Part shown: positions 9,690 through 59,252 of the stretch, piece by piece
Layout of the letters: every line of letters begins with the position of its first letter
Position numbering within the stretch: position 1 is the first letter of the stretch
Assembly (NCBI GenBank): GCA_039933105.1
Contig: JBDTOT010000023.1
Span: 115-64,114 of the forward strand
Reading direction: 5' to 3'
From: Gammaproteobacteria bacterium
GTDB lineage: Bacteria; Pseudomonadota; Gammaproteobacteria; Steroidobacterales; Rariloculaceae
Length of the DNA stretch: 64,000 nt
Notes under the pieces: model-generated
What the model saw: the letters and a program-made list of their open reading frames with translations, nothing else
Databases searched by the model: none
What the model was told of the DNA's origin: nothing
Position numbers and translations under genes: made by a program

Positions 9690-9792
9690 CGCCCCTTGCG
9701 CAGCCCGCGGACGGCGTGCGTTTGGCTAGGCAGGCGGTTACGATGGCGTGGGTCCGACCGCGACCGACAACAACAACGAACGAGGTCCCGCG

Positions 9793-11568
9793 ATGCCATT
9801 CGAATATGGCTCACAACAAGTCGATATCCCGAACCCATTCAAGTTCGAGGGCATGGCCTATACCGCACGGGCGGCGGTGCTGATTGTGCTGGGTCTGGTC
9901 TCGCTATTCACCGTGCGCGGCCTCGTCGCGGACGGGGAGCGTGTCGCCGGCATCGCCGTTGCAGTCGGGGGGCTCGCGCTGCTCGGATTTGGGGCCTACG
10001 CCGCGTACGTGGGTTTGTACAAGGTGTTCCGGTTTTACGTCGGCCGCGGCCAGCCCGCCGATCTCGCTGCGACGGTGTCGTCGGAGCAGACCGTCATGCC
10101 GGGCACGCGTACGGGCGGCACCACGGGATACCGCGGCATCTATCAGCCGAACGTCCTCGCAGACATGTTGCTCGGCCGCAAGAACCCCACGTTTCAGGAG
10201 CCCGAAGGCTGGCTGCCGCGGCTGCTCCACAGCGTTGCACCGACCCTGATTTTTCTGCCGTACGCGCTGCGCAACGATTCGGGTCTACGCTTCGCGGCCG
10301 CGGCGCACAGCTTGGTGCTGCTGATCCTGCTCGGCCTCGCGTGGTTCTCCGGGGTCACGGGCATCGTGCCGATGGCCGGCACGAGCATTATGGCGTGGCT
10401 CGTGTCCGTGGTGACGCTGCTGCTACTCGCGATTTGGTTACGGCAGGCCCTGAGACTGCAACCTTCGAATCGCATTGCGATGCTGCGTTTCTCTCCGCTA
10501 GGCCTCGCCTTTTGGGCCACGGTGGCCGTGCTGGCGCCCGTCGTGCTCGTGGGCCTGAACCGCGTCCAGCCGCTGCCGGCGCCTACCATCTCGCCGTACC
10601 CGTGGTTTGCGTTGACGTTGCTGGTGGCGATCGCGGCCACGGGCTTTAGCCTCTATTTGAGCTTGCGCCGCGCGCCGAAGACGCCACCGCCCACGGCCGT
10701 GACCGAATATCGCGAGCACTGGCAGGAGTCGGTGCACCCGATGGACATCTTCCGCGCGATCGAGATCACGCTCGCGAAGCACAGGTTTCAGGAGATTCCG
10801 AACCGCGTTTACGTGAACGATGTGCCGCAGCTCGTAGCGCAAGGCTCGCAGAACAAAGGCGAGTTCGAAGGCCGCACGTTGCAGGAAGTGCAGCCGAGGC
10901 CTATCGCCGATCGGCGCAGCGATGCGTTGCTGCGGATCGCGATCACCGTCGGCCAGGTGTTACTTGCGGCAGGCGGCATCGCCGTGTTCACGGTGCTGGT
11001 CCGGTTGCCCGACATCCCCATGACGTCCATCGTGCAGACGCTGCTCGGCGCCGCGATCCTGTGGACGCTCGGCATGTTGGTGGCGCACACGGCAAATTTG
11101 TACGTGTCCGAAATCGAGTTCGAGTCGGACCTGATCGTGTTCCAGGCCACGGGCACGTTCGCCGAGTCGCGCCTCGCGACGGGTATGAGCATTTACGACT
11201 CTACCCGCTCGGAGAACACGATCGTGCGCTCGAGCCTTACGCCGTGGCTGCTCGTCAGCAAGATCCACAGCAGCACGCTGGCCGTGAGTGGTTCCGACAA
11301 CCTCGAACAACCGCGCCTGGTGCTCGGCATGAGCCCCGACGACGATTTGTGCCGCGACCTCGTGAGCGATGCGCGGGCGTTTCTGCACGACCGGCAGATC
11401 ATGGCCACGGTGGCGTCGGAGTCGGATCTTCAGGCTGCTTCGAACATCTATCAGATGAACGAGCGCACGCGTGCCGCGCAAGCGGGCCAGCCCGGTCAGC
11501 CGCAGATCAGCCAGGATATGCGCGACGACAAGCGGCTGCCCGGCGGCGGCAATCCTCCGAGTAGCTGA
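9793..11568 (+). CDS. large polytopic membrane protein, unknown function
   Basis: ATG at 9793 preceded by GAGG (the track ORF starts at GTG 9748). About 8-10 hydrophobic segments and a soluble C-terminal region of about 130 aa. No family recognised. Confidence 0.6.
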   Translation: MPFEYGSQQVDIPNPFKFEGMAYTARAAVLIVLGLVSLFTVRGLVADGERVAGIAVAVGGLALLGFGAYAAYVGLYKVFRFYVGRGQPADLAATVSSEQTVMPGTRTGGTTGYRGIYQPNVLADMLLGRKNPTFQEPEGWLPRLLHSVAPTLIFLPYALRNDSGLRFAAAAHSLVLLILLGLAWFSGVTGIVPMAGTSIMAWLVSVVTLLLLAIWLRQALRLQPSNRIAMLRFSPLGLAFWATVAVLAPVVLVGLNRVQPLPAPTISPYPWFALTLLVAIAATGFSLYLSLRRAPKTPPPTAVTEYREHWQESVHPMDIFRAIEITLAKHRFQEIPNRVYVNDVPQLVAQGSQNKGEFEGRTLQEVQPRPIADRRSDALLRIAITVGQVLLAAGGIAVFTVLVRLPDIPMTSIVQTLLGAAILWTLGMLVAHTANLYVSEIEFESDLIVFQATGTFAESRLATGMSIYDSTRSENTIVRSSLTPWLLVSKIHSSTLAVSGSDNLEQPRLVLGMSPDDDLCRDLVSDARAFLHDRQIMATVASESDLQAASNIYQMNERTRAAQAGQPGQPQISQDMRDDKRLPGGGNPPSS

Positions 11569-26766: not shown

Positions 26767-27123
26767 ATGAACAAACTGTTAGTTGCACTGCTGCTCACGG
26801 CGGCATTGACGCCACCGGCGTTTGCGCACCACTCCGCGGCGCGGTTCGATCTCACGATTCGCGACCACACGGTCGTAGGGATAGTGAAAGAGTTCAAACC
26901 TGCGAATCCGCACACGAAGATCGTGCTCGAGATTGCGGACGAGAAGGGCAAGCGCGACATCGAATTCGAGGGCCACAGTTTGAACAATTACTACCGTGGC
27001 GGTTGGCGCGAAGGATTGGTCAAGCTCGGTGACAAGATCACGCTGTATGCGGCGCCGACGAAAGACGGCACGGATGGCGGGTACGCGCTCGAAGTCGTAG
27101 CCGCCGATGGCACGAGGTTCTGA
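26767..27123 (+). CDS. small secreted HHS-motif protein S1 (DUF6152-like)
   Basis: 118 aa with GGAG 7 nt upstream of the ATG. Signal peptide ...PPAFA|HHSAARFD, then NPH. One of six paralogous S domains in the window. Confidence 0.8.
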   Translation: MNKLLVALLLTAALTPPAFAHHSAARFDLTIRDHTVVGIVKEFKPANPHTKIVLEIADEKGKRDIEFEGHSLNNYYRGGWREGLVKLGDKITLYAAPTKDGTDGGYALEVVAADGTRF

Positions 27124-27494
27124 TGGACCCCTCCGTCAACGTATTCGGCGAGGAAATCATCGGCTGCAGCGACCGGCCGATCACCGGCTTCTTTCGCGAC
27201 GGCTGCTGCAACACGAGCGATGACGATGTCGGTTCGCACACGGTGTGCGTCGAGGTCACGAAGGATTTTCTCGAGTTCTCGCGCTTCAAGGGCAACGATT
27301 TGTCGACGGCGCGTCCCGAGTTCAATTTTCCGGGCTTGAAGCCGGGCGACCGCTGGTGTTTGTGCGCCGCGCGCTGGCTCGAAGCGCAGCAGCAGGGCAT
27401 GGCGCCGCGCGTGGTGCTCCGGGGCACGCACGAGCGCGCGCTCGAGGTGGTGTCGCTCGATCTCTTGAAGAAGTTCGCCGTCGATTTGAACTAG
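27123..27494 (+). CDS. DUF2237 family protein
   Basis: 123 aa. GFFRDGCCNT ... GNDLSTARPEFNFPGLKPGDRWCLCAARW is the DUF2237 signature. Its start overlaps the S1 stop (TGATG). Confidence 0.85.
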   Translation: MDPSVNVFGEEIIGCSDRPITGFFRDGCCNTSDDDVGSHTVCVEVTKDFLEFSRFKGNDLSTARPEFNFPGLKPGDRWCLCAARWLEAQQQGMAPRVVLRGTHERALEVVSLDLLKKFAVDLN

Positions 27495-27572
27495 GAGATG
27501 GTGAAGCCGGTGTTGTGACAGATCCCGGTAGTGTCTGATAGCTTCCGTCTGGGGGAACAACAGGGGATCGTG

Positions 27573-28457
27573 ATGAAAGTGCTTGGCCGTCTTGTGAGTT
27601 CAGTGGTCGTCGTGTGGGGCCTGTCATCGTTGACGCCCATGTCAGGGCAGTCGCAGCAGCCGCCGCCGAATACCGGCACGCCGGAAGAAACCGCAAAACT
27701 TGCGGTGGCGGCCGGCAAATACGATATCGCCGGGCTGAAGCTCGGCACGCCGCTCAAGGAGTCGATGCAGGCGCTGAAGGCGCACAATCCCAAGCTGCAA
27801 ATGAAACAGGACACTGTTCGGTACGACGTGCTGGGCGCCGACCTGCTCTACGGCCTGACCTTCACGAGCCCGGAGGAAAGATTCATCTTTAGCCTCACGA
27901 TGCCTCCCAATCCGATCGTCGTATCGAGGCTGGCCCGTGTGCTGATATTCACGAAGGAGACGGCGCCGACACAGCAAGTGATCGTCGATGCCTTGATCGA
28001 GAAGTATGGCACGCCCAGTTACGACAACGGCCCCAACCAACTGAACGACGCCAATTTTCGCGTCATCAACTGGTTGGACGATGCCGACGGCAAGCGGATG
28101 AAAGACCCGACCGGCCAGATGTGCACGACGTCCAACTCGTTTACGGGCATACCGCCGCAATCGGCTGAGGCCGCGCAGATGCCGGTGCGGGGAATATCGA
28201 TGCTCCTCGAGTCGCGTTTTTCCATCGGCCAGGGGGATGTCTGTGAGACGCGTCGGATGGTTCAGGCGAGGCTCCAAAAGTGTTGCAGAGACGGCTTGGC
28301 TGCCCCGAATTTGGTCGGAGGGCTAGTGGTCCACCTGGGCGATGGCCCGCTCGACGAACAATCCATCGGCGCGACGCACGAGATGCTCGTGAACGCGACG
28401 AAGGCCAAGGACGCGAAGGAGCAGGAGAGCGCGCAGAAGAACCGGCCGAAGCTGTAG
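27573..28457 (+). CDS. secreted hypothetical protein
   Basis: ATG at 27573 (track ORF starts at 27531). Signal peptide present, no family recognised. The region looks more A/T-rich than its neighbours by eye. Confidence 0.55.
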   Translation: MKVLGRLVSSVVVVWGLSSLTPMSGQSQQPPPNTGTPEETAKLAVAAGKYDIAGLKLGTPLKESMQALKAHNPKLQMKQDTVRYDVLGADLLYGLTFTSPEERFIFSLTMPPNPIVVSRLARVLIFTKETAPTQQVIVDALIEKYGTPSYDNGPNQLNDANFRVINWLDDADGKRMKDPTGQMCTTSNSFTGIPPQSAEAAQMPVRGISMLLESRFSIGQGDVCETRRMVQARLQKCCRDGLAAPNLVGGLVVHLGDGPLDEQSIGATHEMLVNATKAKDAKEQESAQKNRPKL

Positions 28458-28458
28458 A

Positions 28459-30423
28459 TTGATTTCAATACACCGGGAGGGTCCTTCTTTGAAACGCTGC
28501 TGTGCGCACGCGTGGGTCTTGGCCACGCTCATCATCGCCGTCGGAGTCGTTGCAGTGCACGCGCCGCGCGCGAATGCGCAGGCGAAATCGCCGATGGTCG
28601 AGTGGCCCATCTACGGCGGCAACCTTGCATCGCAGTTCTACTCGCCGCTCGATCAGATCAACGCGCGCAACGTAAAGGACCTGAAGGTCGCGTGGCGTTG
28701 GTACGCAGGCAACTTCGGTCCAGATCCGGAGCTGAAGAGCGAGAACACGCCGCTCATGATCGGTGGCGTGCTGTATGCGACCGCTGGCGCCACACGTAAC
28801 GTTGCGGCGATCGACGCCGCCACGGGCGAGACGCTGTGGGTCTGGCGACCGAACGAGACCGAGCGGTTCAAGCAGGCGCCGCGCAAGATGGCCGGGCGCG
28901 GCGTGGCGTACTGGACCGACGGAACGCAAGACAAGCGCGTGTTCGTCGTGACGCCGGGCTTCTTTTTGTGGTCGCTCGACGCGACGACCGGTCTGCCGAA
29001 GCGCGAGTTCGGCGAAGCCGGAGTCGTCGATCTGCGCCGAGGCCTACGCGGGCCAGCGGACAACGTAGAGGCGGGCTCATCGTCGCCCGCGCTCGTGGTG
29101 GGCGACGTGGTGATCGTGGGGCCGGCCGGCGGCATTGGCGCACGGCCGAACTCGAAGACTCAGGTGAAGCTCGACGTGCGCGGCTTCGACGCGAAGAGCG
29201 GCAAGCTCTTGTGGACGTTCCATACGATTCCGGAGAATGCCGAGTTCGGCTACGACACGTGGCTCACGCCGGGCTCTGCCGAGTACACGGGTAACGCGGG
29301 CGTGTGGGCGCCGATGGCGGCCGATCCCACGCTCGGGCTCGTGTATCTGCCGGTCGAAGGCCCCACCAGTGATTTGTACGGCGGCGAGAGGCCCGGCAAT
29401 AATTTGTTTGGCAACACGCTGGTGGCGCTCGACGCGAAGACCGGCCAGCGTGTGTGGCACCAGCAGCTCGTACATCACGACATCTGGGATTACGACAACC
29501 CCACATCGCCGATCCTGCTCGACGTGAGGGTGGGCGGCAAACAAGTCAAAGCCGTGGTGCAGCTCACGAAGCAAGCGTTCGCGTACGCGTTCGATCGCGC
29601 GACCGGTGCGCCGCTCTGGCCGATCGAAGAGCGGCCTGTGCCGACGTCCGACGTGCCGGGCGAATGGACCTCGCCAACGCAGCCGTTTCCGACGAAGCCG
29701 AAAGCCTACGACCGCCAGGGCGTCAGCGAGGCCGATCTCGTCGACTTCACGCCCGCGATCAAGGCGGCGGCGCTCGCGGCCGTCAAAGACTTGCGCATGG
29801 GCCCGATGTATACGACGTCGTCGCTGATCGACGCGACGGACGGCACGCGCGGCGCGCTCGTGCTTCCGCATTTTGGCGGCGGCACGAACTGGGAGGGCGG
29901 CGCGGCGGATCCCGAGACTGGCATGCTGTACGTCGCGTCGCAGACCACGATGAACGTATTCGCCGTGAACCTTGCGAACGGCCGCTCCGACATTCGCTAC
30001 TTGTTCGTAAACGGCGACGCGCCGCATCCGCTCGGATTGCCGCTGATCAAGCCGCCGTATGGCCGTATCACGGCCATCGACATGAACACCGGCGAGCACC
30101 GGTTCATGATTCCGAACGGCGACACACCGGACGACGTCAAGAACAACCCGGCGCTCAAGGGCGTGAAGCTGCCGCCAACGGGTAAGCCGAGCAAGGCCCT
30201 GCTGCTCGTGACGAAGACGCTGCTGTTCGCGGCCGAAGGCTACGGCGGCGGGCCGATCCTGCGGGCGTACGACAAGGCCACCGGCGCCGTGGTGGCTGAG
30301 CTTGCGTTGCCCGGTGTGGCGAGCGGCAAACCCATGACCTACCTATTGAACGGCAAGCAGTACCTCGTGCTGGCCGTTGGCAAGGACCACCCGGCGGAGC
30401 TCGTGGCGTTCGCATTGCCTTAG
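28459..30423 (+). CDS. PQQ-dependent dehydrogenase (glucose/quinate/shikimate-type beta-propeller)
   Basis: 654 aa with a signal or anchor segment. It has WPIYGGNLASQFYSPLDQINARNVKDLKVAWRW, repeated W-docking motifs and TKQAFAYAFDRATGAPLW. The exact start is uncertain. Confidence 0.85.
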   Translation: MISIHREGPSLKRCCAHAWVLATLIIAVGVVAVHAPRANAQAKSPMVEWPIYGGNLASQFYSPLDQINARNVKDLKVAWRWYAGNFGPDPELKSENTPLMIGGVLYATAGATRNVAAIDAATGETLWVWRPNETERFKQAPRKMAGRGVAYWTDGTQDKRVFVVTPGFFLWSLDATTGLPKREFGEAGVVDLRRGLRGPADNVEAGSSSPALVVGDVVIVGPAGGIGARPNSKTQVKLDVRGFDAKSGKLLWTFHTIPENAEFGYDTWLTPGSAEYTGNAGVWAPMAADPTLGLVYLPVEGPTSDLYGGERPGNNLFGNTLVALDAKTGQRVWHQQLVHHDIWDYDNPTSPILLDVRVGGKQVKAVVQLTKQAFAYAFDRATGAPLWPIEERPVPTSDVPGEWTSPTQPFPTKPKAYDRQGVSEADLVDFTPAIKAAALAAVKDLRMGPMYTTSSLIDATDGTRGALVLPHFGGGTNWEGGAADPETGMLYVASQTTMNVFAVNLANGRSDIRYLFVNGDAPHPLGLPLIKPPYGRITAIDMNTGEHRFMIPNGDTPDDVKNNPALKGVKLPPTGKPSKALLLVTKTLLFAAEGYGGGPILRAYDKATGAVVAELALPGVASGKPMTYLLNGKQYLVLAVGKDHPAELVAFALP

Positions 30424-32021: not shown

Positions 32022-33077
32022 ATGATGAGAATCGAACGGGGGTGGTTGGCGGCAGCGCTGTGCGCGACGGCGCCGACGGTGTACGCGCACCATAGCGTGT
32101 CCGCGTGGTTCGACACCACGAACATGATCGAGGTCGAAGGGCGGGTGACCGAATTCCGCTGGCAGAACCCGCACGTGATCTTCACGTTGAACGTGGTCGA
32201 CGCGGTTGGCGCGACCACGCCGTGGGCCATCGAGACGCTCTCGATCAGCGGCATCAGCCGCTGGGGCATCACGGAGGATCTTTTCAAGGTCGGCGATTGG
32301 CTGCGTGTGGCAGGCAATCCTGCGCGCAAGGACGGTCACAACATCTTCGTGCGCAACATTCTGCTGCCCGGCGGGCGCGAGATCGTGCTCGGCGGCGCGG
32401 CGCGCTGGTCGAACGATACGCTGCGCGGCAGCGAGCTGCTGCAAGCGCGTGACGGCGACCCTTCGCGGCCCGAGCTCGGCATCTACCGCACGTGGAGCAG
32501 CGGCGGTGTCGGCGCCGTGCTGTTTCCGGAGGCCGTGCAGGCGAATTTCGATTTCAACAAGTATCCGTTGACGGCGGCCGGGCGTGCCGCGCTGCAGAAG
32601 TTCGACTTCGCGGCCGACGACCCCACGGCCGACTGCAAGCCGAAAGGCATGCCGACGGTCATGGAGCAGCCATACCCGATGGTGGTGACCGAGCGCGGTG
32701 CGACCATCGAGATCGCGCTCGAGGAGTACGACACGAGGCGCATCGTGCACATGGGCGCCGCTGGTGCGGCCGCCGCGGCGAAGGCGCAGCCGAGCGCGCT
32801 CGGGTACTCGGTCGGTCGCTGGGAAGATGGCACGCTCGTGGTCACGACGACGAAGTCGATCTGGGGGCACTTCGACAGCGTGGGGATTCCGCTCACGACG
32901 GCTGCCGTCATGGTCGAACGCTTCACCCCGAGCGCCGACGGCGCGCGGCTCGACTACATACTAAGCGTTACGGACGCCGCGACATTCACGATGCCGGTCG
33001 AGCTCAAGAAGGCGTGGATCTGGCGACCCGAGGTTACGATCGGCAAGTTCGAGTGCCAGCGCGTCGTGCGGAGGTAA
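32022..33077 (+). CDS. natural fusion of an S domain and an L domain (secreted, unknown function)
   Basis: The N-terminal half has ...TVYA|HHSVSAWFD ... QNPH ... VGDWLRVAGNP (S-type). The C-terminal half has DDPTADCKPKGMP, TRRIVH, GYSVGRWEDGTLVV and FECQR (L-type). There is no second signal peptide. The start could be TTG 32001 or ATG 32022/32025. Confidence 0.75.
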   Translation: MMRIERGWLAAALCATAPTVYAHHSVSAWFDTTNMIEVEGRVTEFRWQNPHVIFTLNVVDAVGATTPWAIETLSISGISRWGITEDLFKVGDWLRVAGNPARKDGHNIFVRNILLPGGREIVLGGAARWSNDTLRGSELLQARDGDPSRPELGIYRTWSSGGVGAVLFPEAVQANFDFNKYPLTAAGRAALQKFDFAADDPTADCKPKGMPTVMEQPYPMVVTERGATIEIALEEYDTRRIVHMGAAGAAAAAKAQPSALGYSVGRWEDGTLVVTTTKSIWGHFDSVGIPLTTAAVMVERFTPSADGARLDYILSVTDAATFTMPVELKKAWIWRPEVTIGKFECQRVVRR

Positions 33078-33091
33078 GCGGAGTGCTGGCG

Positions 33092-33952
33092 ATGGATACG
33101 CGGGTGCGCGGGGCATGGTTTGGATGTGCGATCACCGTGATTGCGGGGATGGCCGCGGTCGCGACAGAGCGAGGCTCGGCTGCGCAGTGGGTCGACTATC
33201 CCACTGCAAATGTGCCGCGCAATGCCGACGGCTCGCCGAACTTGAAGGCGCCTGCGCCGCGCGCCGCCGACGGCAAGCCAGACCTGTCGGGCATGTGGTT
33301 CTCGGCCGAACTACTCCCGGAGTGCGCCGACACCAAGGTTGACTGCATCCCGCAGATGAATCTCCCTGCCGACCAGATCAACATCGGGCGCACGCTGAAG
33401 GATGGATTGCCGTACACGCCTTGGGCCGCGAAGCTGGTGGCGGAGCGCACGGCAAACGGCGCAAAGGACGATCCGCACGCGTTCTGTCTGCCACCGAACT
33501 TCCCGCGCGCGTACTCTCTGCCGCAGTACATCAAGATCGCGCAGATGCCGAAGCTGACGATCGTGTTGCACGAGTTCAACGCGAGCTATCGGCAAATCTT
33601 CACGGACGGGCGGCCGCTGCCGAAGGATCCGTTGCCGGCGTGGAACGGTTACTCGGTCGGGCATTGGGAACGCGACACACTGGTGGTCGAGTCGAGCGGC
33701 TTCCGCGACGATCTGTGGCTCGATCTTTCGGGCAGCCCGATGACGAGCGCTGCGCACGTGGTGGAGCGCATCAAGCGGCCGAGCTTCGGCTCCCTAGAGA
33801 TCGAGGTCACGGTCAACGATCCCAAGGCCTACACGAAGCCGTGGACGGTGACACTGCGCCAGAACATCGTGCTCGACACCGAATTGATCGAGGAGACGTG
33901 CCTCGAGAACGAGCGCGATACGGGGTTGTTCAAGAAAGAGGGCGCCAAGTGA
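33092..33952 (+). CDS. secreted partner protein L3 of the S/L module
   Basis: 286 aa from ATG 33092 (GTG at 33083 also possible). Motifs: PDLSGMW, DDPHAFCLPPNFP, YRQIFTDGRP, GYSVGHWERDTLVVE, ETCLEN. Confidence 0.75.
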   Translation: MDTRVRGAWFGCAITVIAGMAAVATERGSAAQWVDYPTANVPRNADGSPNLKAPAPRAADGKPDLSGMWFSAELLPECADTKVDCIPQMNLPADQINIGRTLKDGLPYTPWAAKLVAERTANGAKDDPHAFCLPPNFPRAYSLPQYIKIAQMPKLTIVLHEFNASYRQIFTDGRPLPKDPLPAWNGYSVGHWERDTLVVESSGFRDDLWLDLSGSPMTSAAHVVERIKRPSFGSLEIEVTVNDPKAYTKPWTVTLRQNIVLDTELIEETCLENERDTGLFKKEGAK

Positions 33953-34332
33953 AGGCAAAGGTGTTGCTGCTGCCACTGTCTCTGCTGCTGGCGCTACCGA
34001 CGAGCGCGCATCACTCCGGCGCCGCGTACGACCGCGACAAGACGGTGACCGTGAACGGCACCGTGAATTCCGTCGAGTGGACGAGTCCCCACGCCTGGAT
34101 CAAGGTCGACGCCAAGAACGAGGCGGGTGCTGCGGTGACGTGGGAGTTCGAGCTGCCGAGTCCCGTGACACTGACGCGCCGCGGGTGGGCGCGCACGGCG
34201 CTCACGCCCGGCGACAAGATCACGGTGACCGGCGCACTGGCGCGGGAGCATCCGAACATCGCCATTGCGACCGGCGTGATCGACAAGAACGGCCGCCGCC
34301 TGTTCGGCGGCGCCGCGGATTCGAAGGAGTAG
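33949..34332 (+). CDS. small secreted HHS-motif protein S3
   Basis: GTG start overlaps the L3 stop (GTGA). Signal peptide ...LALPTSA|HHSGAAYD, then SPH and PGDKITVTG. Confidence 0.8.
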   Translation: MKAKVLLLPLSLLLALPTSAHHSGAAYDRDKTVTVNGTVNSVEWTSPHAWIKVDAKNEAGAAVTWEFELPSPVTLTRRGWARTALTPGDKITVTGALAREHPNIAIATGVIDKNGRRLFGGAADSKE

Positions 34333-34336
34333 GGCG

Positions 34337-34771
34337 CTAGGCTTTCGCGTCCGCGACGAGCCCGGCCTGTTCGATGCCGTAAGCGCATACGGCCTCGTCT
34401 TCCTCGCCCGTGCCGCCGCTGGCGCCCGCCGCACCCAGGATGTTGCCCTGCGCGTCGCGGATCAGCACGCCGCCGATCTGCGGCAGGAACTTGCCCGCGG
34501 CCGTCGCCGCAAGTGTGATGAAGAAGTTCGGGTTGTCCTTGGCGCGGGCCGCCAGTGCGCGGCTCGAAGCGCCCATGCCGACAGCGGCCCAGGCTTTGCC
34601 GGTGGCCACATCGAACCTGAACATGCTCGCGCCGTCCTCGCGTTGCATGGCCTTCAAGTGCCCCGACTGGTCGAGGACGACCACGGTCACGGGCTTGATC
34701 TTCATTTCGCGCGCCTTCTCCAGCGCCTTCGTGATGATCTGATTGGCCTTCGCGATATCCAGTGTCGACAT
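34337..34771 (-). CDS. GlcG/HbpS-like haem-binding protein (DUF336)
   Basis: 144 aa from the ATG at 34771, preceded by AGGAGG. GGVLIRDAQGNILGAAGASGGTGEEDEAVC matches the DUF336 core. The longer 307-aa track ORF is rejected. Confidence 0.8.
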   Translation of the reverse strand: MSTLDIAKANQIITKALEKAREMKIKPVTVVVLDQSGHLKAMQREDGASMFRFDVATGKAWAAVGMGASSRALAARAKDNPNFFITLAATAAGKFLPQIGGVLIRDAQGNILGAAGASGGTGEEDEAVCAYGIEQAGLVADAKA

Positions 34772-34916
34772 GCGCCTCCTCCCAAAACAGCAACGCCGGC
34801 CTGCAGCATAAAGGCTCGCGCAGACGGTGTCAGGTGTTGTCGCGCGCAGAGGCGGCGTTCGCGATGTCGTTGCAGGCGCGTAGAATGCTGCAGCCGCTGC
34901 GAGGGGAGGTTTCCGA

Positions 34917-35747
34917 ATGAGTACGCCGTGCATCATCACCGTGGCGATCACTGGCTCGGTGCCGAAGAAGGCGGACAATCCGGCGGTGCCGATCACCGTT
35001 CCCGAGCAGATCGAGTCGACGCATGCGGCGTACGAAGCCGGTGCCGCGCTCGTGCACCTCCACGTACGCAATGACGACGGTACTACGACGTCGAATGCCG
35101 AGAAGTTCGGCCAGTTCCTGGAAGGGATACGCAAGCACTGCCCCGACATCATCGTACAGTTCTCGACGGGTGGGCGAAGTGGCGTGGGCGCCGAGCGTGG
35201 CGGCATGTTGCACCACCGGCCCGACATGGCATCCCTGTCGACCGGCTCCGTGAACTTCAAGACGATGATCTACGAGAACCACCCGAAGCTCATCGTCGAC
35301 CTCGCCACGCGTATGCTCGAGCACGACGTAAAACCGGAGATCGAGATCTTCGATCTCGCGATGCTCTACAACGCGGCCAAGCTCGTCGAGGAAGGGTTGC
35401 TCAAGTCGCCGGTGCACGTGCAGTTCGTGCTGGGGGTTCCGAACGCGTTGCCGGCCGATCGGCAGGTGCTCGAATTCGAACTCACGCAGCTGAAGCGTGT
35501 GCTCCCCGATGCGACGTGGACGGCGGCCGGCGTGGGGCGCTTCCAGCTACTCGTGAACGAATGGACGCTCGAGCTTGGCGGGCACTGCCGCACGGGGCTC
35601 GAGGACAATGTCCGCTTCGACAAGAGCCGCCTCGCGACCAGCAACGCAGAACTCGTCGCCCGAGTGGCAGGGCTCTGCGGACGCTACTGCCGCAAGGTCG
35701 CGACGCCGGCGGAAGCCCGCCGACTGCTTGGATTACGTGCCGCTTAA
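34917..35747 (+). CDS. 3-keto-5-aminohexanoate cleavage enzyme family (BKACE/DUF849)
   Basis: 276 aa with IITVAITGSVP, ALVHLHVRNDDG and QFSTGGRSG, typical BKACE motifs. Confidence 0.85.
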   Translation: MSTPCIITVAITGSVPKKADNPAVPITVPEQIESTHAAYEAGAALVHLHVRNDDGTTTSNAEKFGQFLEGIRKHCPDIIVQFSTGGRSGVGAERGGMLHHRPDMASLSTGSVNFKTMIYENHPKLIVDLATRMLEHDVKPEIEIFDLAMLYNAAKLVEEGLLKSPVHVQFVLGVPNALPADRQVLEFELTQLKRVLPDATWTAAGVGRFQLLVNEWTLELGGHCRTGLEDNVRFDKSRLATSNAELVARVAGLCGRYCRKVATPAEARRLLGLRAA

Positions 35748-36163: not shown

Positions 36164-36655
36164 TCAGCCGCCGCCGGTGCCCAAGTACGGCAGCAACCGG
36201 CCAAACGCCAGCACGCCGAACCAGAACGTCAGCGACAGCACGCCGACCACCTTCGCGAGCGCCGGCGTGGCGTCGTGCGGCCCCAAGCGCAGGAGCTTCG
36301 GCTCGACCGCAAAGAAGTAGAGCAGAAAGTTCAAGCCAGCCGCCACGACCAGAATCATTTTGGCCCAGAACGACCAGTTGCCGGAGTAGTTGTACGGGTC
36401 GCCGAAAAAGAAGCACACGCCGGTAATCAAGTTGATCGAGAAGGCGGCGATCGCCCACGGCATCAGGCTGTGCACGGCCTTCAATGGAATCGTGCGCTGG
36501 AAGCCGATCAAGCGCAGGTCCATCACGAGCAACGCGCCCATCAACACGCATAGGCCGAGGAAGTGCAGCGACTCGAGCGTCGGCCAGCTCCAGGGGTAGC
36601 CCAGGACGAGCTTGTTGAGCCACGTGGTCAGCATCCAGTCATAGATGTGGTGCAT
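36164..36655 (-). CDS. 4-TM membrane protein, tandem paralogue B
   Basis: 163 aa. It shares P-T-x-x-[ST]-LH-x-[IL]-G, [VM]-DLRL-[LI]-G, IN-[LT]-x-[ST]-G and GRL with the upstream gene 36668-37162. Confidence 0.65.
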   Translation of the reverse strand: MHHIYDWMLTTWLNKLVLGYPWSWPTLESLHFLGLCVLMGALLVMDLRLIGFQRTIPLKAVHSLMPWAIAAFSINLITGVCFFFGDPYNYSGNWSFWAKMILVVAAGLNFLLYFFAVEPKLLRLGPHDATPALAKVVGVLSLTFWFGVLAFGRLLPYLGTGGG

Positions 36656-36667
36656 TTGGCTCGTCTC

Positions 36668-37162
36668 CTAAATGAAAATCATGATGTAGGCCGTGAGTCG
36701 ACCTGTCACGATCGCGCAGAGCCAAAAAACGATCCCGATCGCGGCGATGTTGCGAACGCGTGCCGGCGGCTTGCCACCGGGCCACGTGCTTGCCTTGGCA
36801 AGCTCCGGCTGCAGGATGCCGGCGGTCGCGGCGCCGGCGAACACGAGCACGATTTTCGCGATGAACATGAGGTCCGTGGCGAACATCGTAGCCTGCGCCA
36901 CGAACAGCCCCGAGCCCGACAATGTGTTGATGAGGAAGCCGACCCAGGCGACCGGCAGCAGCTTCTGCAGCGACTCGTACGGAATGCCGTCGAATCGGCC
37001 GAGTAGCCGCAGATCCACGATCACGCACAGGCCGACCATGATCGCCATGCCGATGGCGTGGAGCGTGATGACGGTCGGATAGCCTTCGCTCGACATCCGA
37101 ACCCATTCGGCGAGCTTGCTCGCCTCTAACCAAGCAAAGAATGCCACGCGAAGTTCCCCCAA
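36668..37162 (-). CDS. 4-TM membrane protein, tandem paralogue A
   Basis: 164 aa with a TTG start (start uncertain). Paralogous to 36164-36655, with a 12-nt intergenic gap. Confidence 0.65.
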   Translation of the reverse strand: MGELRVAFFAWLEASKLAEWVRMSSEGYPTVITLHAIGMAIMVGLCVIVDLRLLGRFDGIPYESLQKLLPVAWVGFLINTLSGSGLFVAQATMFATDLMFIAKIVLVFAGAATAGILQPELAKASTWPGGKPPARVRNIAAIGIVFWLCAIVTGRLTAYIMIFI

Positions 37163-45465: not shown

Positions 45466-45906
45466 ATGCACGTCGATCGTTCACCCACCGGTCGTGTGGC
45501 GGCCGTGGCCTTCCTGACTGCGGTGTGCGCGCTCGCCGGCATCGTTGCTCTGGCGCAAACGGAGCCGCGCACGCTGCGCGACGGCGTGTTCTCGGCCGCT
45601 CAAGCCGCGCGCGGACAGCGCATCTTCAAGTCGATCTGCGTGGATTGTCACGAGATCGAAGAGTTCACGGGGGCGGGCGCCTACTTGGAAGAACACGACG
45701 GCAAGCCGTTGTGGGACACGTTCGACTTCGTCTCGGAGAACATGCCGGACGACGATCCTGGCTCGCTCAAGCCCGCCGACTACACGGCCGTGCTCGCGTA
45801 CATTTTCAGCGTGTATGGTTTGCCGGCGGGCGACGCTGATTTGCCGGACGACCGCGCGGTGCTCGAAGCGATCACGATCACGCGCCCGGGATCTCCCGGC
45901 GGGTAA
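45466..45906 (+). CDS. membrane-anchored or secreted c-type cytochrome
   Basis: 146 aa with a hydrophobic N-terminus and a single CVDCH haem motif. It starts 2 nt after the def stop. Confidence 0.7.
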   Translation: MHVDRSPTGRVAAVAFLTAVCALAGIVALAQTEPRTLRDGVFSAAQAARGQRIFKSICVDCHEIEEFTGAGAYLEEHDGKPLWDTFDFVSENMPDDDPGSLKPADYTAVLAYIFSVYGLPAGDADLPDDRAVLEAITITRPGSPGG

Positions 45907-48252: not shown

Positions 48253-48711
48253 ATGGCCACTGCCCATCGCGCCTCGCGCGTCATCGTCGCCGCGTTTGGT
48301 CTCGTCATCGCGGCAGGCGCGGCCGCTCATCACTCGTACGCCATGTTCGAGCCTGCGCGGACGGCGACCGTCACGGGCACGGTTGCGAAGCTCGAGTGGA
48401 CGAATCCGCACGTGTTCATCTGGATGTACGTGCCGAACGCGGCGCGCGACAACGGGTTCGATTTGTATGCGTTCGAGAATGGGTCGCCGAACGTGCTGCT
48501 GAAGCGGGGATGGTCCAAGGAGACATTCGCGGTCGGCGAGAAACTATCGATCGCCTATTGGCCGCTCGCCGACGGGCGCACGGGTGGGCACTTCGCAGTC
48601 GCCACGCGCGTGGACGGCAGCGTCATTCGCGGCGCGGGCGGGCCCGGTGGCGGTGTCGACGCCTCGGACGCCGTCGGTGCACCCACGGCACCGCCGGCAG
48701 GTAAGCCGTGA
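48253..48711 (+). CDS. small secreted HHS-motif protein S4 (with Gly/Pro-rich tail)
   Basis: ATG preceded by GGGAG. Signal peptide ...AAGAAA|HHSYAMFE, then NPH and VGEKLSIAYWP. It has a low-complexity C-terminal extension. Confidence 0.8.
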   Translation: MATAHRASRVIVAAFGLVIAAGAAAHHSYAMFEPARTATVTGTVAKLEWTNPHVFIWMYVPNAARDNGFDLYAFENGSPNVLLKRGWSKETFAVGEKLSIAYWPLADGRTGGHFAVATRVDGSVIRGAGGPGGGVDASDAVGAPTAPPAGKP

Positions 48712-49480: not shown

Positions 49481-51247
49481 TCAGCGCGTCGGCAGCGCGA
49501 ACACGAACAGCTTGTTGCGGCTGTCGTTGGGCGCGACATCCGGCGTCAGCCGCGAGAGCCCGCCCGTCATGTTGGAGCGGCCGGTGCTCACCGCTACGTA
49601 CTGCTTGCCGCCGGCTTCGAACGTGATCGGGTGCCCGGTGACCTGCGAGCCTACATTCGTTTCCCACAGCACCTTGCCCGTCGTCGCGTCGAACGCACGA
49701 AAGTTGCCCGCCACGTCGCCGCCGAATACGAGGTCGCCCGCCGTTGCGACGAGCGCCGTCACGCCCGCGCGCGTGTCGAACCGCCACACGGCCTTGCCGG
49801 TCTCGGCCGAGAGCGCGCGCACCGTGCCGACCTTACCGTCCGCGTCCGGCGTGATCATTGTCTCGCCGCTGATGGCGTAGAGAAGCTCCGGTTTTCGCTC
49901 GGTCGTCGCGGCCGTGGTCACGTTCCAGCAGGTGTTCTGCAACGGCATGTACATGGCCTTCGTGCGCGGGCTGTATGCGCCGGCAGGCCAGTTCTTGCCT
50001 CCGTTCGTCGTCGGGCAGATGAACAGCGTTTGATTCGCCGCGGTGAACAAGGCTTTTTCGTTGACCGTGACCTTGCCGGTGGCGCCGTCGATACCCGCGA
50101 CCACATTCTGGAAGATGGTCGGCCGTGCCCACAGAAATTCGCCCGTGACGCGATCGAGCGTGTAGACGAGGCCGGTCTTGCCGGGTATTCCCGTCACGAC
50201 TTTGCGGTGCTCGCCGGGCTTCAGCCGAGGGTTGATCCACGGCACTTCGCTCTTGTCGGGCGCAACGGCCGTGTCGAGCAGAATTCGCTCGAACGGGTGA
50301 TCGAGATCCCAGTGGTCGACGACGTGCTGGTAGTACCACGCGGTTTCGCCGGTGGCCGGACGCAGCGCGAGCGTCGAGTTGTGGTAGAGGTACTGCTTGT
50401 CATTGCCGGCCAGCAGGAACTTCGGTGCCGGTGCCGTGACCGACGTGCCCATATAGATGAGATCGAGCTCGGGGTCGTAGCTCGGCATCATCCACGCGCC
50501 GACGTGCCAACGGCCCGAATCCGGTATGTCGCCCCAACTGTCGCCGCCGGGCTCGCCAGGTTTCGGGATCGTGCGCTTGCGCCACAGTTCCTTACCGGTG
50601 TGCGCGTCGTGCGCCGTGATCACGCACGCATCGGGCCCGCCCTGCGGCTGGCAATTGCGGCCCGAGATCAGCTTGCCCGCGACGACGAAAGGCGCCGTGC
50701 CCTGTTTCACGTGACTCACGTGATAGTCGAAGACCTTGTTCTCCCACACGAGCTTGCCGGTCGCTGCATCGAGCGCGTAGATCGTGTTGTCGGCGCCGTT
50801 GTCGATGATCAGTCGATCGTAGATCGCGAGGTTGCGATTCGTCTGCGGGAACGGCACGAACTTGCCCAGATCTTCCGGGAGTGCGCGACGGTGTTCCCAG
50901 AGTGTCTTGCCGGTCGCCGCGTCGAGCGCGACGGTGTGGTCCGACGGGTTGGGGAAATACATGACGCCGTCGTGCACGATCGGCGTGCCTTCCTGCGACG
51001 GCGCGTCGTCGAGGTCGATCGACCATGCGACCTTCAAACTACCGACGTTGCTGCGGTTGATCTGGTCGAGTGGGCTGTAGCCCCACGCATCGAATGTGCG
51101 CCGCCACATGAGCCAGTCGGCGTCGTCCGGGTGCCTAAGCATCGCGTCGGTCACGGGGCGGAACTCGTGCTCGGCGGCATTCGCGCCGATAGCGGCGGCG
51201 AAGCAGAGCGAAACAGCGAGTAGGGTGGTGCGGGTTGGCATCGGCAA
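49481..51247 (-). CDS. PQQ-dependent dehydrogenase (methanol/ethanol-family-like quinoprotein)
   Basis: 588 aa with a signal peptide. WLMWRRTFDAWGYSPLDQINRSNVGSLKVAWS and an eight-blade W-motif pattern are present. Confidence 0.85.
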   Translation of the reverse strand: MPMPTRTTLLAVSLCFAAAIGANAAEHEFRPVTDAMLRHPDDADWLMWRRTFDAWGYSPLDQINRSNVGSLKVAWSIDLDDAPSQEGTPIVHDGVMYFPNPSDHTVALDAATGKTLWEHRRALPEDLGKFVPFPQTNRNLAIYDRLIIDNGADNTIYALDAATGKLVWENKVFDYHVSHVKQGTAPFVVAGKLISGRNCQPQGGPDACVITAHDAHTGKELWRKRTIPKPGEPGGDSWGDIPDSGRWHVGAWMMPSYDPELDLIYMGTSVTAPAPKFLLAGNDKQYLYHNSTLALRPATGETAWYYQHVVDHWDLDHPFERILLDTAVAPDKSEVPWINPRLKPGEHRKVVTGIPGKTGLVYTLDRVTGEFLWARPTIFQNVVAGIDGATGKVTVNEKALFTAANQTLFICPTTNGGKNWPAGAYSPRTKAMYMPLQNTCWNVTTAATTERKPELLYAISGETMITPDADGKVGTVRALSAETGKAVWRFDTRAGVTALVATAGDLVFGGDVAGNFRAFDATTGKVLWETNVGSQVTGHPITFEAGGKQYVAVSTGRSNMTGGLSRLTPDVAPNDSRNKLFVFALPTR

Positions 51248-54977: not shown

Positions 54978-55364
54978 TTACTTGATCGCGAAGCCGGCGC
55001 CCGGGTTGAGTTCCTTGCCGTCGCCACGCGTGGCCTTCATCCACGCCGCTGCGGGGCGGCCGTCCTTCATCGGGTGGCCGGTGATCGTGACCTCGGTGCC
55101 CGGAGAGAGATCGCTCTTGCGGATACCGGCACGAGTCAGAGTGCTCGGGCCCTCGGCCTCGAAGCCCCACGTCGTGACGGTGCCATCCGTGTTCTTGACG
55201 TCGACGAGCAACCACGAGTGCGGGTTCGTGTACTGAAACTCTTTCACGGTGCCCTTGACGGTGACCTCTTTGGCGTCATCGAACATGACGGCCGAGTGGT
55301 GCGCAAAGCTGGGCGCTGCTACGAGTGCGAGCCCGCCAAATGCGATTGCCAGAATCTGTTTCAT
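54978..55364 (-). CDS. small secreted HHS-motif protein S5
   Basis: 128 aa. Signal peptide ...VAAPSFA|HHSAVMFD, then NPH and PGTEVTITGHP. Its AGGAG ribosome-binding site overlaps the TAG stop of L5. Confidence 0.8.
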   Translation of the reverse strand: MKQILAIAFGGLALVAAPSFAHHSAVMFDDAKEVTVKGTVKEFQYTNPHSWLLVDVKNTDGTVTTWGFEAEGPSTLTRAGIRKSDLSPGTEVTITGHPMKDGRPAAAWMKATRGDGKELNPGAGFAIK

Positions 55365-56487: not shown

Positions 56488-56865
56488 ATGCGTACCGGTT
56501 GGCGTTATGTCGCTGCACTCCTGTGCGCTTTGGCGGTCGTCGCAGCCTTGCCCGCGTCTGGTCACCATTCCTTCGCGGTCTACGACTTCGAACAACAGAT
56601 TCCGTTCGAGGGCGTCGTGGCTACGTTGAGCTTCAAGAACCCGCACATGTCGATGACCTTGACGCACACGCGCCCGGATGGCAGTACCGAGACGATCGAT
56701 TTCGTCGAAGGCGCGCCGGCGAACATGGCCGTGCGCGGCGGCCTCACGCCTGACATGATCAAGCCGGGTACCAAGATCACTGCGATCGGTTCGCCGCGGC
56801 GCGACAATCCGAACGTGTTCTTCCTGCGCCACGTTCGGCTCGCGGACGGCCGCGAATTCATGTAG
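56488..56865 (+). CDS. small secreted HHS-motif protein S6 (no adjacent L on its own strand)
   Basis: 125 aa with a good ribosome-binding site (AAGAGGGTAAGGA). Signal peptide ...ALPASG|HHSFAVYD, then NPH and PGTKITAIGSP. Confidence 0.8.
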   Translation: MRTGWRYVAALLCALAVVAALPASGHHSFAVYDFEQQIPFEGVVATLSFKNPHMSMTLTHTRPDGSTETIDFVEGAPANMAVRGGLTPDMIKPGTKITAIGSPRRDNPNVFFLRHVRLADGREFM

Positions 56866-56898: not shown

Positions 56899-57315
56899 CT
56901 ACTTGCCGCCCGAGGCTTGGTTCCTGCGCGCCAGCACGTCGCGTAGCAACGGCAGGTCGTTCAAGGCGGGCGCGTCGACCGGGATCGTGTTCAGATACGC
57001 CCAGATGTCCGCTAGCGTTTGCGCCGATGCGTCCGGCATCGCGGGCATGTTGGGCAACGGTGAGTTCTGCACGAACGTGATGAAGCCCTCGAGCGGATAC
57101 TTCATCGGCACTAAACGGCGCTCGCCGGTCTGCGCGTCGAAGCCGTGGCAGGCGTAACAGTTGTAGGTATCCGAGAACAGCTGTTTGCCGCGTTCGGCAT
57201 TGCCAACCGGCGCGCTGCCGGCGCTTTGCTGCGCCGGCGACGGCGTGACGACGACGAATAGACCGAGCGCGATCGATGGAAGCAGTGAGGCATGTGCCAG
57301 CTTACGCAGTTTCAT
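56899..57315 (-). CDS. secreted mono-haem c-type cytochrome
   Basis: 138 aa with a signal peptide. It has a CYACH haem motif and a distal NMPAMP Met region. It lies 14 nt downstream of the TPP enzyme gene. Confidence 0.8.
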   Translation of the reverse strand: MKLRKLAHASLLPSIALGLFVVVTPSPAQQSAGSAPVGNAERGKQLFSDTYNCYACHGFDAQTGERRLVPMKYPLEGFITFVQNSPLPNMPAMPDASAQTLADIWAYLNTIPVDAPALNDLPLLRDVLARRNQASGGK

Positions 57316-57329
57316 AACCGAAATACCGC

Positions 57330-59252
57330 CTATCGGGGTTGTGAGACGACGTCGAGCAGTGCGGGCTCGCCCGCGCGAACACGCGCGAGCGCACGCTCGA
57401 GAGCCGGTGCCAACGCGTTCGGATCGCTGATCGGGCCTTCGGCGTACACGCCGTAGCCCTGTGCGATCTTGGCGTAATCTGGCGCCGGTTCGCGAATCAC
57501 GTTGCCGATATCCACTTTGTCGTTGCCGCGACCGCGCCGTGCTGCCGTGCGCTGCACGAGCATGACTTCCGCGTGATATGCGCGGTTATTGTGGATGATC
57601 AGGAGCAGCGGGATCTTGTGGTGCGCCGCCGTCCACAGTGCGCCGGCGCCGACGAAGTTGAAGTCGCCGTCGCCGACGATGCCGATGGATAGTCGGCCAT
57701 GCGCTTTGTGCGCCAGCGCGCCGCCGACCGAGGCCGGTGTGTCGTAGCCGATGCCGAAGCCACCGGAGTCGCCGTTGTAGCGATAGTGCTTGTCGTGATT
57801 CAGCAGCCGGCGTTGCCATTGGCCCGTGAACTGATGGCCCGAGACGATCGCCCAGTCGTCGTTCTGAATCTGGCGGCCGAGCTCGGTGATCATGCGCGGC
57901 ACGCTGATCGGGCTCGCGTTCCAGCCGTAACGTGCGTCGTCGATCTCACGCTCGTGCACCGCTTTGTGCGCAGCCGCGACCTGGGTACGGCGCGCCGTGC
58001 GTGCGCGCGCCGCGTCGCGCGGGCTCTGGCGGCGAATCTCTTCGATCAACGAGGGTAGCGTCGCTTCAGCGTCCGCGGCGATCGCGAGGTCGACGTCGGT
58101 GTAGCTGCCGTAGTCGTGGATGTTGTGGCCCTGCGACAGGTACTCGGCGCAGATGCTGATCGTCTTACCGCCAGTCGCGTGTGTCTGGCGCACCGATGGC
58201 ACCATGTCGTTCAGCTCGAGGCCCAAGATCACGTCCGGTTTGTAGTCGGCGCCGCCTGAGCCGTACAGCGCGTGCCACGACGGGAAGTCCTGCCACGAGC
58301 CGTACGTGCCGACGTCCACTGGCGATTGCAGCAGCTCGGCGAGTTCGAGCAACAGGTCCCAGCCGGCCGGCGTGCGTCCGAGCTTGCCTGGCCGAATCAG
58401 CGGCCGCTCGGCACTGGCGAGCCACTTGGCCGCCTCGCGAACGGCGCCGGTCTCCCCTTGCGGGACCGCAGGCAGGATCACCTTCGGGATCGGCAAGCTC
58501 ATGCCGTTTGGGATTGCGGCTTCTTGGAGCTCCGAGTCGACGACCAGCAAGGTCGGGCCCATCGGCGGCGTGCGGCCGATCGTGTACGCGCGCATCGCGA
58601 TCCCTGCGAATACGTCGAGCCGCGTGGGCTCGTCGTCCATCTTCATGAAGTCGCGCACGATCGAGCCCATGTCTTGTGCGCTATGCGGGCGATTGATGAC
58701 CGACGTGGGATTCCGCGGTTGTCCGACAACGGCGAACACCGGCACGCGGTCGCACCACGCGTGGAACAGCCCCATCGACGCGTGCAGCAGACCGACGGTG
58801 CCGTGCATCAACGTCATCATCGGTTTGCCGGCCGCTTTCGCGTAACTATGTGCGATGGCCGCGCCGGCTTCCTCATGCAGTACGGTAAGAATCTCGGGCT
58901 TGCGGTTGCCGCCGTGGTTAATGAGCGATTCGTGTATGCCCTCGAACGCCGAGCCGGGGTTCACCGCTACGTAATCGAAATCGAGTGCCTTCAGCACGTC
59001 GACCATGTGATCGGAGCCGGGGTGCTCGATGAAGGCTGCGCCGACACGTGGCTCCGGCGGAACAAAATCCTTCCGGGCGTCGGCGTCCGTCGGTCGCGCG
59101 ACCGCGGGGCGTGCGGTGGGTGGCGCTTGCTGCGCGTCGCTGGCGTTGCCGACCAACACGCTTGCGGCACCTGCGGCGCCGCCGGCAGCGCCCTTCAAGA
59201 ATCTTCTTCGATCGACGGACGGTGTCGCGTCGCTGTCGCTGCGTTTGCCCAC
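57330..59252 (-). CDS. thiamine-pyrophosphate enzyme (acetolactate-synthase fold) with twin-arginine signal
   Basis: GTG at 59252 is preceded by GGGGA (the track ATG is at 59306). DRRRFLKGAAGGAAGAASV matches the RRxFLK Tat consensus. The TPP_N domain and the GDGDF ... NN pyrophosphate motif are present. Confidence 0.85.
   Translation of the reverse strand: MGKRSDSDATPSVDRRRFLKGAAGGAAGAASVLVGNASDAQQAPPTARPAVARPTDADARKDFVPPEPRVGAAFIEHPGSDHMVDVLKALDFDYVAVNPGSAFEGIHESLINHGGNRKPEILTVLHEEAGAAIAHSYAKAAGKPMMTLMHGTVGLLHASMGLFHAWCDRVPVFAVVGQPRNPTSVINRPHSAQDMGSIVRDFMKMDDEPTRLDVFAGIAMRAYTIGRTPPMGPTLLVVDSELQEAAIPNGMSLPIPKVILPAVPQGETGAVREAAKWLASAERPLIRPGKLGRTPAGWDLLLELAELLQSPVDVGTYGSWQDFPSWHALYGSGGADYKPDVILGLELNDMVPSVRQTHATGGKTISICAEYLSQGHNIHDYGSYTDVDLAIAADAEATLPSLIEEIRRQSPRDAARARTARRTQVAAAHKAVHEREIDDARYGWNASPISVPRMITELGRQIQNDDWAIVSGHQFTGQWQRRLLNHDKHYRYNGDSGGFGIGYDTPASVGGALAHKAHGRLSIGIVGDGDFNFVGAGALWTAAHHKIPLLLIIHNNRAYHAEVMLVQRTAARRGRGNDKVDIGNVIREPAPDYAKIAQGYGVYAEGPISDPNALAPALERALARVRAGEPALLDVVSQPR

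Follow-up and report, generated by a model that had tools for sequence, protein, structure and literature searches.

A duplicated DUF6152 module with a predicted N-terminal His-His-Ser on an OB-fold, paired with a calycin-like family, as a candidate periplasmic metal-binding system

Results

A 64,000-nucleotide stretch of a Gammaproteobacteria bacterium (Rariloculaceae; assembly GCA_039933105.1, contig JBDTOT010000023.1, positions 115 to 64,114), referred to here as the window, encodes six paralogous small exported proteins, S1 to S6, all of which belong to the Pfam family DUF6152 (PF19649). Each is predicted to begin, after removal of its signal peptide, with His-His-Ser (HHS). We propose that this N-terminus contributes to a metal site on an oligonucleotide/oligosaccharide-binding (OB) fold, and that S acts with the predicted β-barrel product of a second, unnamed gene family, L, whose members lie beside the S genes. 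On the sequence comparisons and structure predictions presented below, we regard this proposal as evenly poised between right and wrong.

An initial annotation of the window had described six S copies in which a small-x-small signal peptidase site is followed directly by HHS and, further on, by an (N/S)PH motif, and had interpreted them as carrying a histidine-brace-like site, with copper the most plausible metal. All six copies were found (Table 1), S5 on the minus strand, which the annotation had left unstated. Each open reading frame (ORF) encodes a Sec-type signal peptide ending in a small-x-small site (AFA, VYA, TSA, AAA, SFA and ASG in S1 to S6, in this order), HHS at once after it and the later motif 25-26 residues downstream. 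The later motifs (ANPH, QNPH, TSPH, TNPH, TNPH and KNPH, in the same order) read exactly as claimed. HHS occurs 11 times in the six-frame translation of the window (127,996 codons), and 6 of these occurrences are the S sites. The presence of HHS at this position in six S copies is real and highly non-random. Identity of the other S paralogs to S5 is merely 25-38%; the residues invariant in all six proteins are, in S5 precursor numbering, H22, H23, S24, G38, V40, P48, H49, G80, G89 and G116.

Family membership and conservation

The six S proteins scored 65-117 bits against PF19649, which has a gathering threshold of 27 bits, and NCBI already names S1 and S5 'DUF6152 family protein'. In S2 the domain covers residues 14-103 (E=2.1e-18). 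Apart from DUF6152, the Pfam search with S returned a single sub-cut-off match, to DUF2291 for S3. The NCBIfam search with S gave no match, and sequence and profile searches of the PDB with S and L gave nothing significant. A profile built from the six copies retrieved 16,908 clusters at 50% identity (E <= 1e-3), distributed over Gammaproteobacteria, Alphaproteobacteria and Acidobacteriota; the family is at least this large. Literature searches for DUF6152 or PF19649 found no paper. The same was true of a search combining the histidine brace with the OB-fold, and a broader search returned only work on lytic polysaccharide monooxygenases (LPMOs) and YcnI.

Conservation was determined in a sample of 156 sequences, consisting of the best 150 family representatives, each from another 50%-identity cluster, and the six S proteins. 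Positions are given in mature numbering, with the first His of HHS as residue 1. His1, His2 and Pro27 are conserved at 100% and His28, the histidine of the NPH motif, at 99%, which bears out the invariance claimed for these histidines. Asp8 is conserved at 96%, with Glu in the remaining 4%, Asn26 and Glu48 at 95% each, and Ser3 at 94%. A second sample comprised 80 loci retrieved with S5 as query from Genome Taxonomy Database (GTDB) genomes of Gammaproteobacteria, Acidobacteriota and Alphaproteobacteria. There, the strict pattern HHS...(N/A)PH was present in 111 of 125 S-type ORFs, and most of the others kept both motifs.

The cleavage site was deduced from the -3/-1 rule together with the architecture of the signal peptide. 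Among the 155 members bearing HH[S/T/A], 153 have A, G or S at -1, and 154 have a small or aliphatic residue at -3. A basic N-region is present in 152, and the hydrophobic core (mean Kyte-Doolittle value 2.5) stops mostly 4-9 residues ahead of the site. Signal peptidase I is thus predicted to cut directly before HHS, making His the first residue of the mature protein in 6 of 6 copies in the window and, by the -3/-1 rule, in 153 of the 155 members. The prediction is as strong as sequence rules allow, and agrees with the assignment made in the initial annotation.

Predicted structure of S

Mature S5 was modelled with AlphaFold2 using 143 aligned sequences. The model had a predicted local distance difference test (pLDDT) score of 94.5 and a predicted template-modelling score (pTM) of 0.87. 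As modelled, S is an OB-fold with a mature length of ~105 residues and the topology β1-β2-β3-α-β4-β5, the strands comprising residues 13-23, 28-36, 42-50, 70-78 and 84-92 and a helical segment lying between β3 and β4. A Foldseek search of the PDB with this model retrieved TiaS, PriB, SSB and the N-domain of LysRS (E ~4e-3, template-modelling (TM) score 0.5-0.58).

The relative position of the conserved residues was analyzed by covariation, using mutual information with average product correction (MI-APC) in 361 sequences. The pairs 34-42, 32-44 and 30-46 define the register of β2 and β3, and by this register His28 is expected directly across from Glu48. Because core and surface residues alternate along the strands, His28, Trp30 and Glu48 would point outward, which places them on the outer β2-β3 face, the canonical ligand face of OB-folds. 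Note that invariant columns give no covariation signal, so His1 and His2 cannot be placed by this method.

The partner family L

The strongest conserved association of S, and one that the initial annotation did not mention, is with the L gene. L proteins are ~250 amino acids (aa) long and unnamed, and their genes adjoin every S gene in the window except S6, which stands without an L gene and is oriented divergently from L5-S5. A Pfam search with the L proteins returned no family, and all named database copies are called 'hypothetical protein'. Across the 80 loci, an L ORF was located <=300 bp from S for 113 of 123 S ORFs, on the same strand in 94 cases. Two cultured strains also have the pair, Novosphingobium humi KACC 19094, in which WP_273620494.1 is an S protein, and Croceibacterium atlanticum 26DY36. 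An S-L fusion occurs outside the window as well (P0321, 353 aa). The adjacency of the genes, their overlapping stop and start codons and the natural fusions suggest that the two proteins are subunits of one complex.

AlphaFold2 was applied to mature L1 with an alignment built from protein-search hits (pLDDT 88, pTM 0.84). The model consists mainly of β-strands; helices occur at the two termini and within the N-terminal third. Foldseek matches to FABP, CRABP, avidin and lipocalin were weak (E ~3e-3; TM score 0.35-0.41 query-normalised, 0.5-0.6 target-normalised) and suggest a calycin-like β-barrel. In its N-terminal part, L has the motif PDxTGxW, which resembles the GxW signature of lipocalins. 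It also has two conserved Cys and an invariant G-x-S-x-G-x-W, whereas none of its histidines is invariant. The GxSxG-like part of the last motif is probably not the nucleophile elbow of a hydrolase, as it sits inside a predicted β-strand. DUF6152 is also found fused to a SnoaL-like (NTF2-fold) domain in place of L (P0254, 302 aa). SnoaL is a domain with a small-molecule pocket, as is the calycin barrel.

At its start, L5 has a possible lipobox Cys (…IAATAC), after which come a long linker rich in Ala, Pro and Gln and an additional helical segment that is absent from L1-L4. The top matches of the L profile outside the L1 type have a length similar to that of L5, about 290-330 aa.

Gene organization and neighbourhood

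The S and L genes and the neighbours referred to below are listed in Table 1. A GGAGA ribosome-binding site lies 7 nt 5' of the S1 ATG.

Table 1. Position of S and L genes and of selected neighbours in the window (HHS, codons of the His-His-Ser motif)
Feature	Coordinates	Strand	Description
S1, DUF6152 protein	26767-27123	+	118 aa; PF19649 E=1.8e-19; identical to NCBI MEO8466076.1 'DUF6152 family protein'
S1, predicted signal peptide	26767-26826	+	
S1, His-His-Ser codons	26827-26835	+	
S1, Asn-Pro-His codons	26905-26913	+	
S2-L2, natural fusion	32022-33077	+	351 aa; DUF6152 N-terminal, L family C-terminal; HHS 32088-32096
S3, DUF6152 protein	33949-34332	+	127 aa; HHS 34009-34017; TSPH; GTG start; PF19649 E=1.5e-29
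S4, DUF6152 protein	48253-48711	+	152 aa; HHS 48328-48336; PF19649 E=1.9e-23
S5, DUF6152 protein	54978-55364	-	128 aa; HHS 55293-55301; PF19649 E=4.9e-34; identical to NCBI MEO8466104.1
S6, DUF6152 protein	56488-56865	+	125 aa; HHS 56563-56571; PF19649 E=6.2e-18
L1	25985-26749	+	254 aa; ends 18 nt before S1; paralogous to L2-L5
L2	32412-33077	+	fusion partner of S2, forming the C-terminal two-thirds of that ORF; aligns to L1 at E=5e-15
L3	33092-33952	+	286 aa; found by tblastn; TGA stop overlaps the S3 GTG start (GTGA)
L4	48708-49472	+	254 aa; GTG start overlaps the S4 stop (GTGA)
L5	55374-56333	-	319 aa; 9 nt upstream of S5; matches a 319-aa NCBI protein (P0391, 'hypothetical protein ABI640_12245')
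PQQ dehydrogenase, first	28459-30423		
PQQ dehydrogenase, second	49481-51247		
c-type cytochrome, first	45466-45906		
c-type cytochrome, second	56899-57315	-	adjoins S6

The window is ordinary chromosome, with genes such as those for RecQ, TatC, RlmKL, RlmJ and peptide deformylase, among which 6 S and 5 L genes are dispersed within 64 kb. To compare genomes, the 137 nearest proteins other than S and L were collected from 36 diverse loci. They match 112 Pfam families, the commonest of which is found in just 6. The initial annotation had seen support for a redox or cofactor role in the proximity of S to pyrroloquinoline quinone (PQQ) dehydrogenases and cytochromes c. This proximity is real in the window and is not a conserved feature of the genomes compared: PQQ dehydrogenase falls outside the 25 commonest families among the 137 neighbours, and the cytochrome c/thiamine pyrophosphate (TPP)-enzyme neighbour of S5/S6 is present at 21 of the 80 loci, nearly all of them from close relatives. 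Besides L, no conserved neighbour of S was found. A search upstream of the S/L operons of the window for a shared regulatory motif (Fur, Zur or CueR-like) gave only a GC-rich 7-mer. Elsewhere, an L1-type ortholog adjoins a TonB-dependent receptor and a hydrolase.

Several further observations concern individual neighbours. The second c-type cytochrome of Table 1 and a secreted-looking TPP-dependent enzyme (57330-59306, minus strand) adjoin S6, and in this clade the two might belong to one unit together with the L5-S5/S6 region. Directly 3' of S1 is a gene for a Cys-rich DUF2237 protein of 123 aa (27123-27494, plus strand). DUF2237 is also encoded just past the S/L module at two loci of marine Gammaproteobacteria (locus L038, 3352-3717; locus L040, 8355-8720). 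An HbpS-like gene lies beside S3; its ORF (34337-35260, minus strand; domain residues 167-296) overlaps a BKACE gene (34917-35747, plus strand), and the true start of the HbpS-like protein is probably much later than the longest ORF implies.

Two four-helix membrane proteins of family DUF6644 are encoded in tandem in the window (36164-36655 and 36668-37162, both minus strand). Their family has the invariant residues His31, Arg48, Lys99, Trp145, Gly152 and Arg153. DUF6644 pairs also occur within a few kb of S/L at loci L038, L040, L047, L048, L057, L063 and L082 (4352-5327), with a single copy at locus L073; the pairs beside S/L are from Gammaproteobacteria, Alphaproteobacteria and Acidobacteriota and include one on a Novosphingobium plasmid. 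DUF6644 was considered as an analogue of CopD, in parallel to the CopC-CopD system, and was rejected, as hhalign against E. coli YebZ, a CopD homolog, gave a probability of 0.6%. Finally, two ORFs with coding-like GC content at third codon positions, 9748-11568 (606 aa) and 27531-28457 (308 aa), both on the plus strand, have no Pfam match.

Discussion

The features of S and L can be combined into the following model. After export by the Sec pathway, mature S would begin with a free amine on His1. His1 and His2, together with Asp8 of the N-terminal arm, may fold over the β2-β3 face to form a mononuclear metal site, which the invariant His28, opposite Glu48 on the same face, would complete. Of these elements, the His28-Glu48 pairing derives from covariation, and the site itself is conjectural. 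The metal would most likely be copper, since this is the metal of all known families in which position +1 of the cleavage site is an invariant His; zinc or nickel is possible. S and the L product, a ~220-residue protein predicted to be a calycin-like β-barrel, may act as a 1:1 periplasmic complex, with S as the constant metal centre and L as a variable pocket. Calycin-like barrels hold small hydrophobic ligands. The heavy duplication of the module would then have served to diversify ligand specificity. Such diversification is a better fit than single-copy metal trafficking, and so high a paralog number is more in keeping with an enzyme family, or one that binds ligands, than with a metal chaperone.

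A number of observations weigh against such a metal site, or against parts of it. The first concern the N-terminus itself. The first ten residues of the S5 model average a pLDDT of 78, compared to at least 96 in the core, and 6 of the 107 modelled residues are below 70; His1-Ser3 are therefore probably not placed with confidence in the model. Residues 6-12 covary with the β4-β5 hairpin (M6-M78, M6-A84, D9-A86, E12-M88), indicating that the N-terminal arm runs along β5, beside β3. In the apo protein, residues 1-3 could accordingly lie 10-15 Å from His28 and Glu48. Among the S-type ORFs of the 80 loci, the commonest deviation from the conserved set is Asp8 to Asn, found in several paralogs. Tandem two-domain DUF6152 proteins were detected among the family representatives (P0241, P0242, P0247 and P0255). 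In the second domain of the last three, an internal HHS...YD is kept, at which a free amine is impossible, and Arg replaces His28. The second domain of P0241 lacks HHS and keeps DPH. The HHS and His28 sub-sites can thus be uncoupled, as these proteins keep one without the other.

The remaining objections are of relatedness and context. The top 50 Foldseek matches of S5 are all OB-folds and include no chain of an LPMO, CopC, YcnI, PmoB or CusF, and to our knowledge no histidine-brace protein, whether LPMO, PmoB, CopC, PmoF1/PCuAC, X325 or YcnI, has an OB-fold. In Pfam, S has no sequence relation to LPMO_10, GH61, CopC, YcnI, PCuAC or Monooxygenase_B. Among the annotated neighbours in the window, no copper, zinc or nickel homeostasis gene is near any S, and no such family is among the 25 commonest of the 137 neighbours from 36 loci. 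Many paralogs are unusual for metallochaperones.

The more specific reading of the initial annotation is that S holds a true copper histidine brace, which would make it a subset of the metal site proposed here. In this case the His1 amine and Nδ1 and the Nε2 of His28 or His2 would bind copper in a T-shape, and S-L would be a copper oxidase or oxygenase, or a copper carrier. In a histidine brace, copper is coordinated by an N-terminal His, through its amine and its π-N, and by the τ-N of a second His; in all known brace classes, cleavage of a signal peptide unmasks the N-terminal amine, and all known classes with a His exposed at the mature N-terminus in this way bind copper (PMC10952591). S has both the predicted His1, the signature common to these classes, and two candidates for the second His (His2, 100%; His28, 99%). 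Its multi-copy expansion, moreover, recalls LPMO gene families rather than chaperones. However, S resembles the brace proteins neither in fold, the OB-fold matching no known brace family, nor in sequence, and no copper genes are nearby; in addition, the conservation of His2, Ser3, Asp8 and Glu48 points to a coordination sphere larger than, or different from, that of a three-nitrogen brace. The earlier interpretation is thus partly supported, in its N-terminal signature, and we consider a copper brace in the strict sense possible but rather doubtful.

A bolder version can be formulated, in which S-L forms a class of periplasmic copper enzyme not recognised before. Its OB-fold subunit would have a brace-type centre, created by removal of the signal peptide, and would dock on a calycin-like subunit to which a small hydrophobic substrate is bound for presentation. 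In soil Gammaproteobacteria, Acidobacteriota and Sphingomonadales, the gene pair would have expanded to dozens of paralogs in each genome that oxidise different substrates, as a small-molecule counterpart of the LPMOs. We regard this version as a long shot.

Alternatively, S may bind no metal at all. His1, His2, Ser3, Asp8, His28 and Glu48 would then serve in acid-base catalysis or in contacts with an organic ligand or with the partner. The N-terminal arm might, for instance, close the L barrel as a plug or lid, or react with the ligand in it. The internal HHS of the three divergent tandem proteins, the possibility that His28-Glu48 is a plain hydrogen-bonded dyad, the fusion of S to the small-molecule-pocket domains L and SnoaL, and a gene context without metal-related genes are all consistent with this explanation. 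On the other hand, in practically every single-domain member HH stands precisely at the cleavage site, which is hard to explain unless a free N-terminus matters, and a pair of neighbouring invariant histidines together with a third is more usual in metal sites. We therefore judge a metal-free function to be unlikely, though it deserves serious consideration.

A further possibility is that S-L binds or chaperones zinc, nickel, cobalt or iron in the periplasm, following the logic of ZinT, in which a His-rich N-terminus is combined with a lipocalin-like barrel. ZinT, with its HGHHSHG start and lipocalin fold, provides a precedent, given that L as modelled is calycin-like and that it contains DWxGxW. 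Moreover, a set of three histidines plus carboxylate, as provided by His1, His2, His28, Asp8 and Glu48, is typical of zinc, nickel and iron sites. The likeness of L to ZinT is confined to the motif, however, and no histidine of L is invariant; genes for znuABC, Zur or nickel handling are absent from the neighbourhood, and dozens of paralogs would be unexpected for a metal chaperone. We rate this possibility somewhat below that of a metal-free function. Lastly, calycin/FABP-like barrels can bind haem, and S, with three invariant histidines where L has none, might donate an axial His to a haem or tetrapyrrole in the L barrel, in a nitrobindin-like electron-transfer or haem-handling module. The HbpS-like gene adjoining S3 and the c-type cytochromes in the vicinity of S4 and S6 would suit such a module, but this gene context is not kept from locus to locus, and nothing in S or L is like a known haem-binding motif. 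We consider this explanation highly improbable.

Should the N-terminal-His metal site of S prove correct, it would add a new scaffold, the OB-fold, and a two-subunit architecture to the short list of processed N-terminal His proteins, which includes the LPMOs and methane monooxygenase. DUF6152 is catalogued but uncharacterised and very large, and its partner L has no Pfam model of any kind; a metal site would also imply abundant unexplored periplasmic chemistry in soil bacteria. The presence of the module in cultured strains makes it testable.

Comparison with known metal proteins

CopC/YobA (PF04234) is, like S, a small periplasmic β-protein that is cut before a His, in E. coli YobA between VWA and HAHL. 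Like S, CopC has an additional His and Asp, which complete its site, and the CopC site needs a free N-terminal amine (PMC10952591). In contrast to the OB-fold of S, CopC is a cupredoxin-like β-sandwich, and the two have no sequence relation. CopC is usually encoded by a single copy beside CopD, whereas S is multi-copy and located beside L, with no CopD.

The LPMOs (AA9-AA17) and the CuB site of PmoB share with S an invariant His at +1 after cleavage and a secreted or periplasmic location, and LPMOs are often multi-copy. They differ from S in having an Ig-like or cupredoxin β-sandwich, in acting on polysaccharide surfaces or methane, in lacking an obligate calycin partner and in that residue 2 is not an invariant His. 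YcnI (DUF1775) resembles S in being a DUF-type bacterial protein located outside the cytoplasm and in its N-terminal His, which in YcnI is a copper ligand. YcnI is reportedly a mono-histidine brace copper protein that was recognised only recently. Its fold is different from that of S, and it is tied to a copper operon, ycnKJI, whereas no copper genes surround S.

The 'metal-binding lipocalin' ZinT/YodA has the mature start HGHHSHG (checked in PDB 1OEE) and a barrel with DWDGVW, which the DWxGxW motif of L resembles. L was rejected as a relative of ZinT, since hhalign gave a probability of 9% over 33 columns on the DWxGVW motif only and the ZinT His triad is absent. In ZinT, a single chain holds the His-rich N-terminus and the lipocalin-like barrel. 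In S-L these elements are on two chains, fused in S2, and the N-terminal histidines of S sit on the OB-fold and not on the barrel.

CusF/SilF (PF11604) are periplasmic OB-fold metallochaperones for Cu(I)/Ag(I) with a His-rich processed N-terminus (ANEHHHET). They share with S the small OB-fold and the periplasmic location, and the metal site of CusF is on β2-β3, the strands whose outer face would carry His28 and Glu48 in S. CusF differs from S in belonging to the cusCFBA operon. A relationship by descent was considered and rejected: there is no Pfam match, the CusF ligands His36, Met47, Met49 and Trp44 do not align with conserved residues of S, and hhalign of CusF and S gave a weak alignment, which includes GxV (β1) and GDKV (β4), with a probability of 31%, which is not significant. 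In fold and location, CusF is nevertheless the known system nearest to S.

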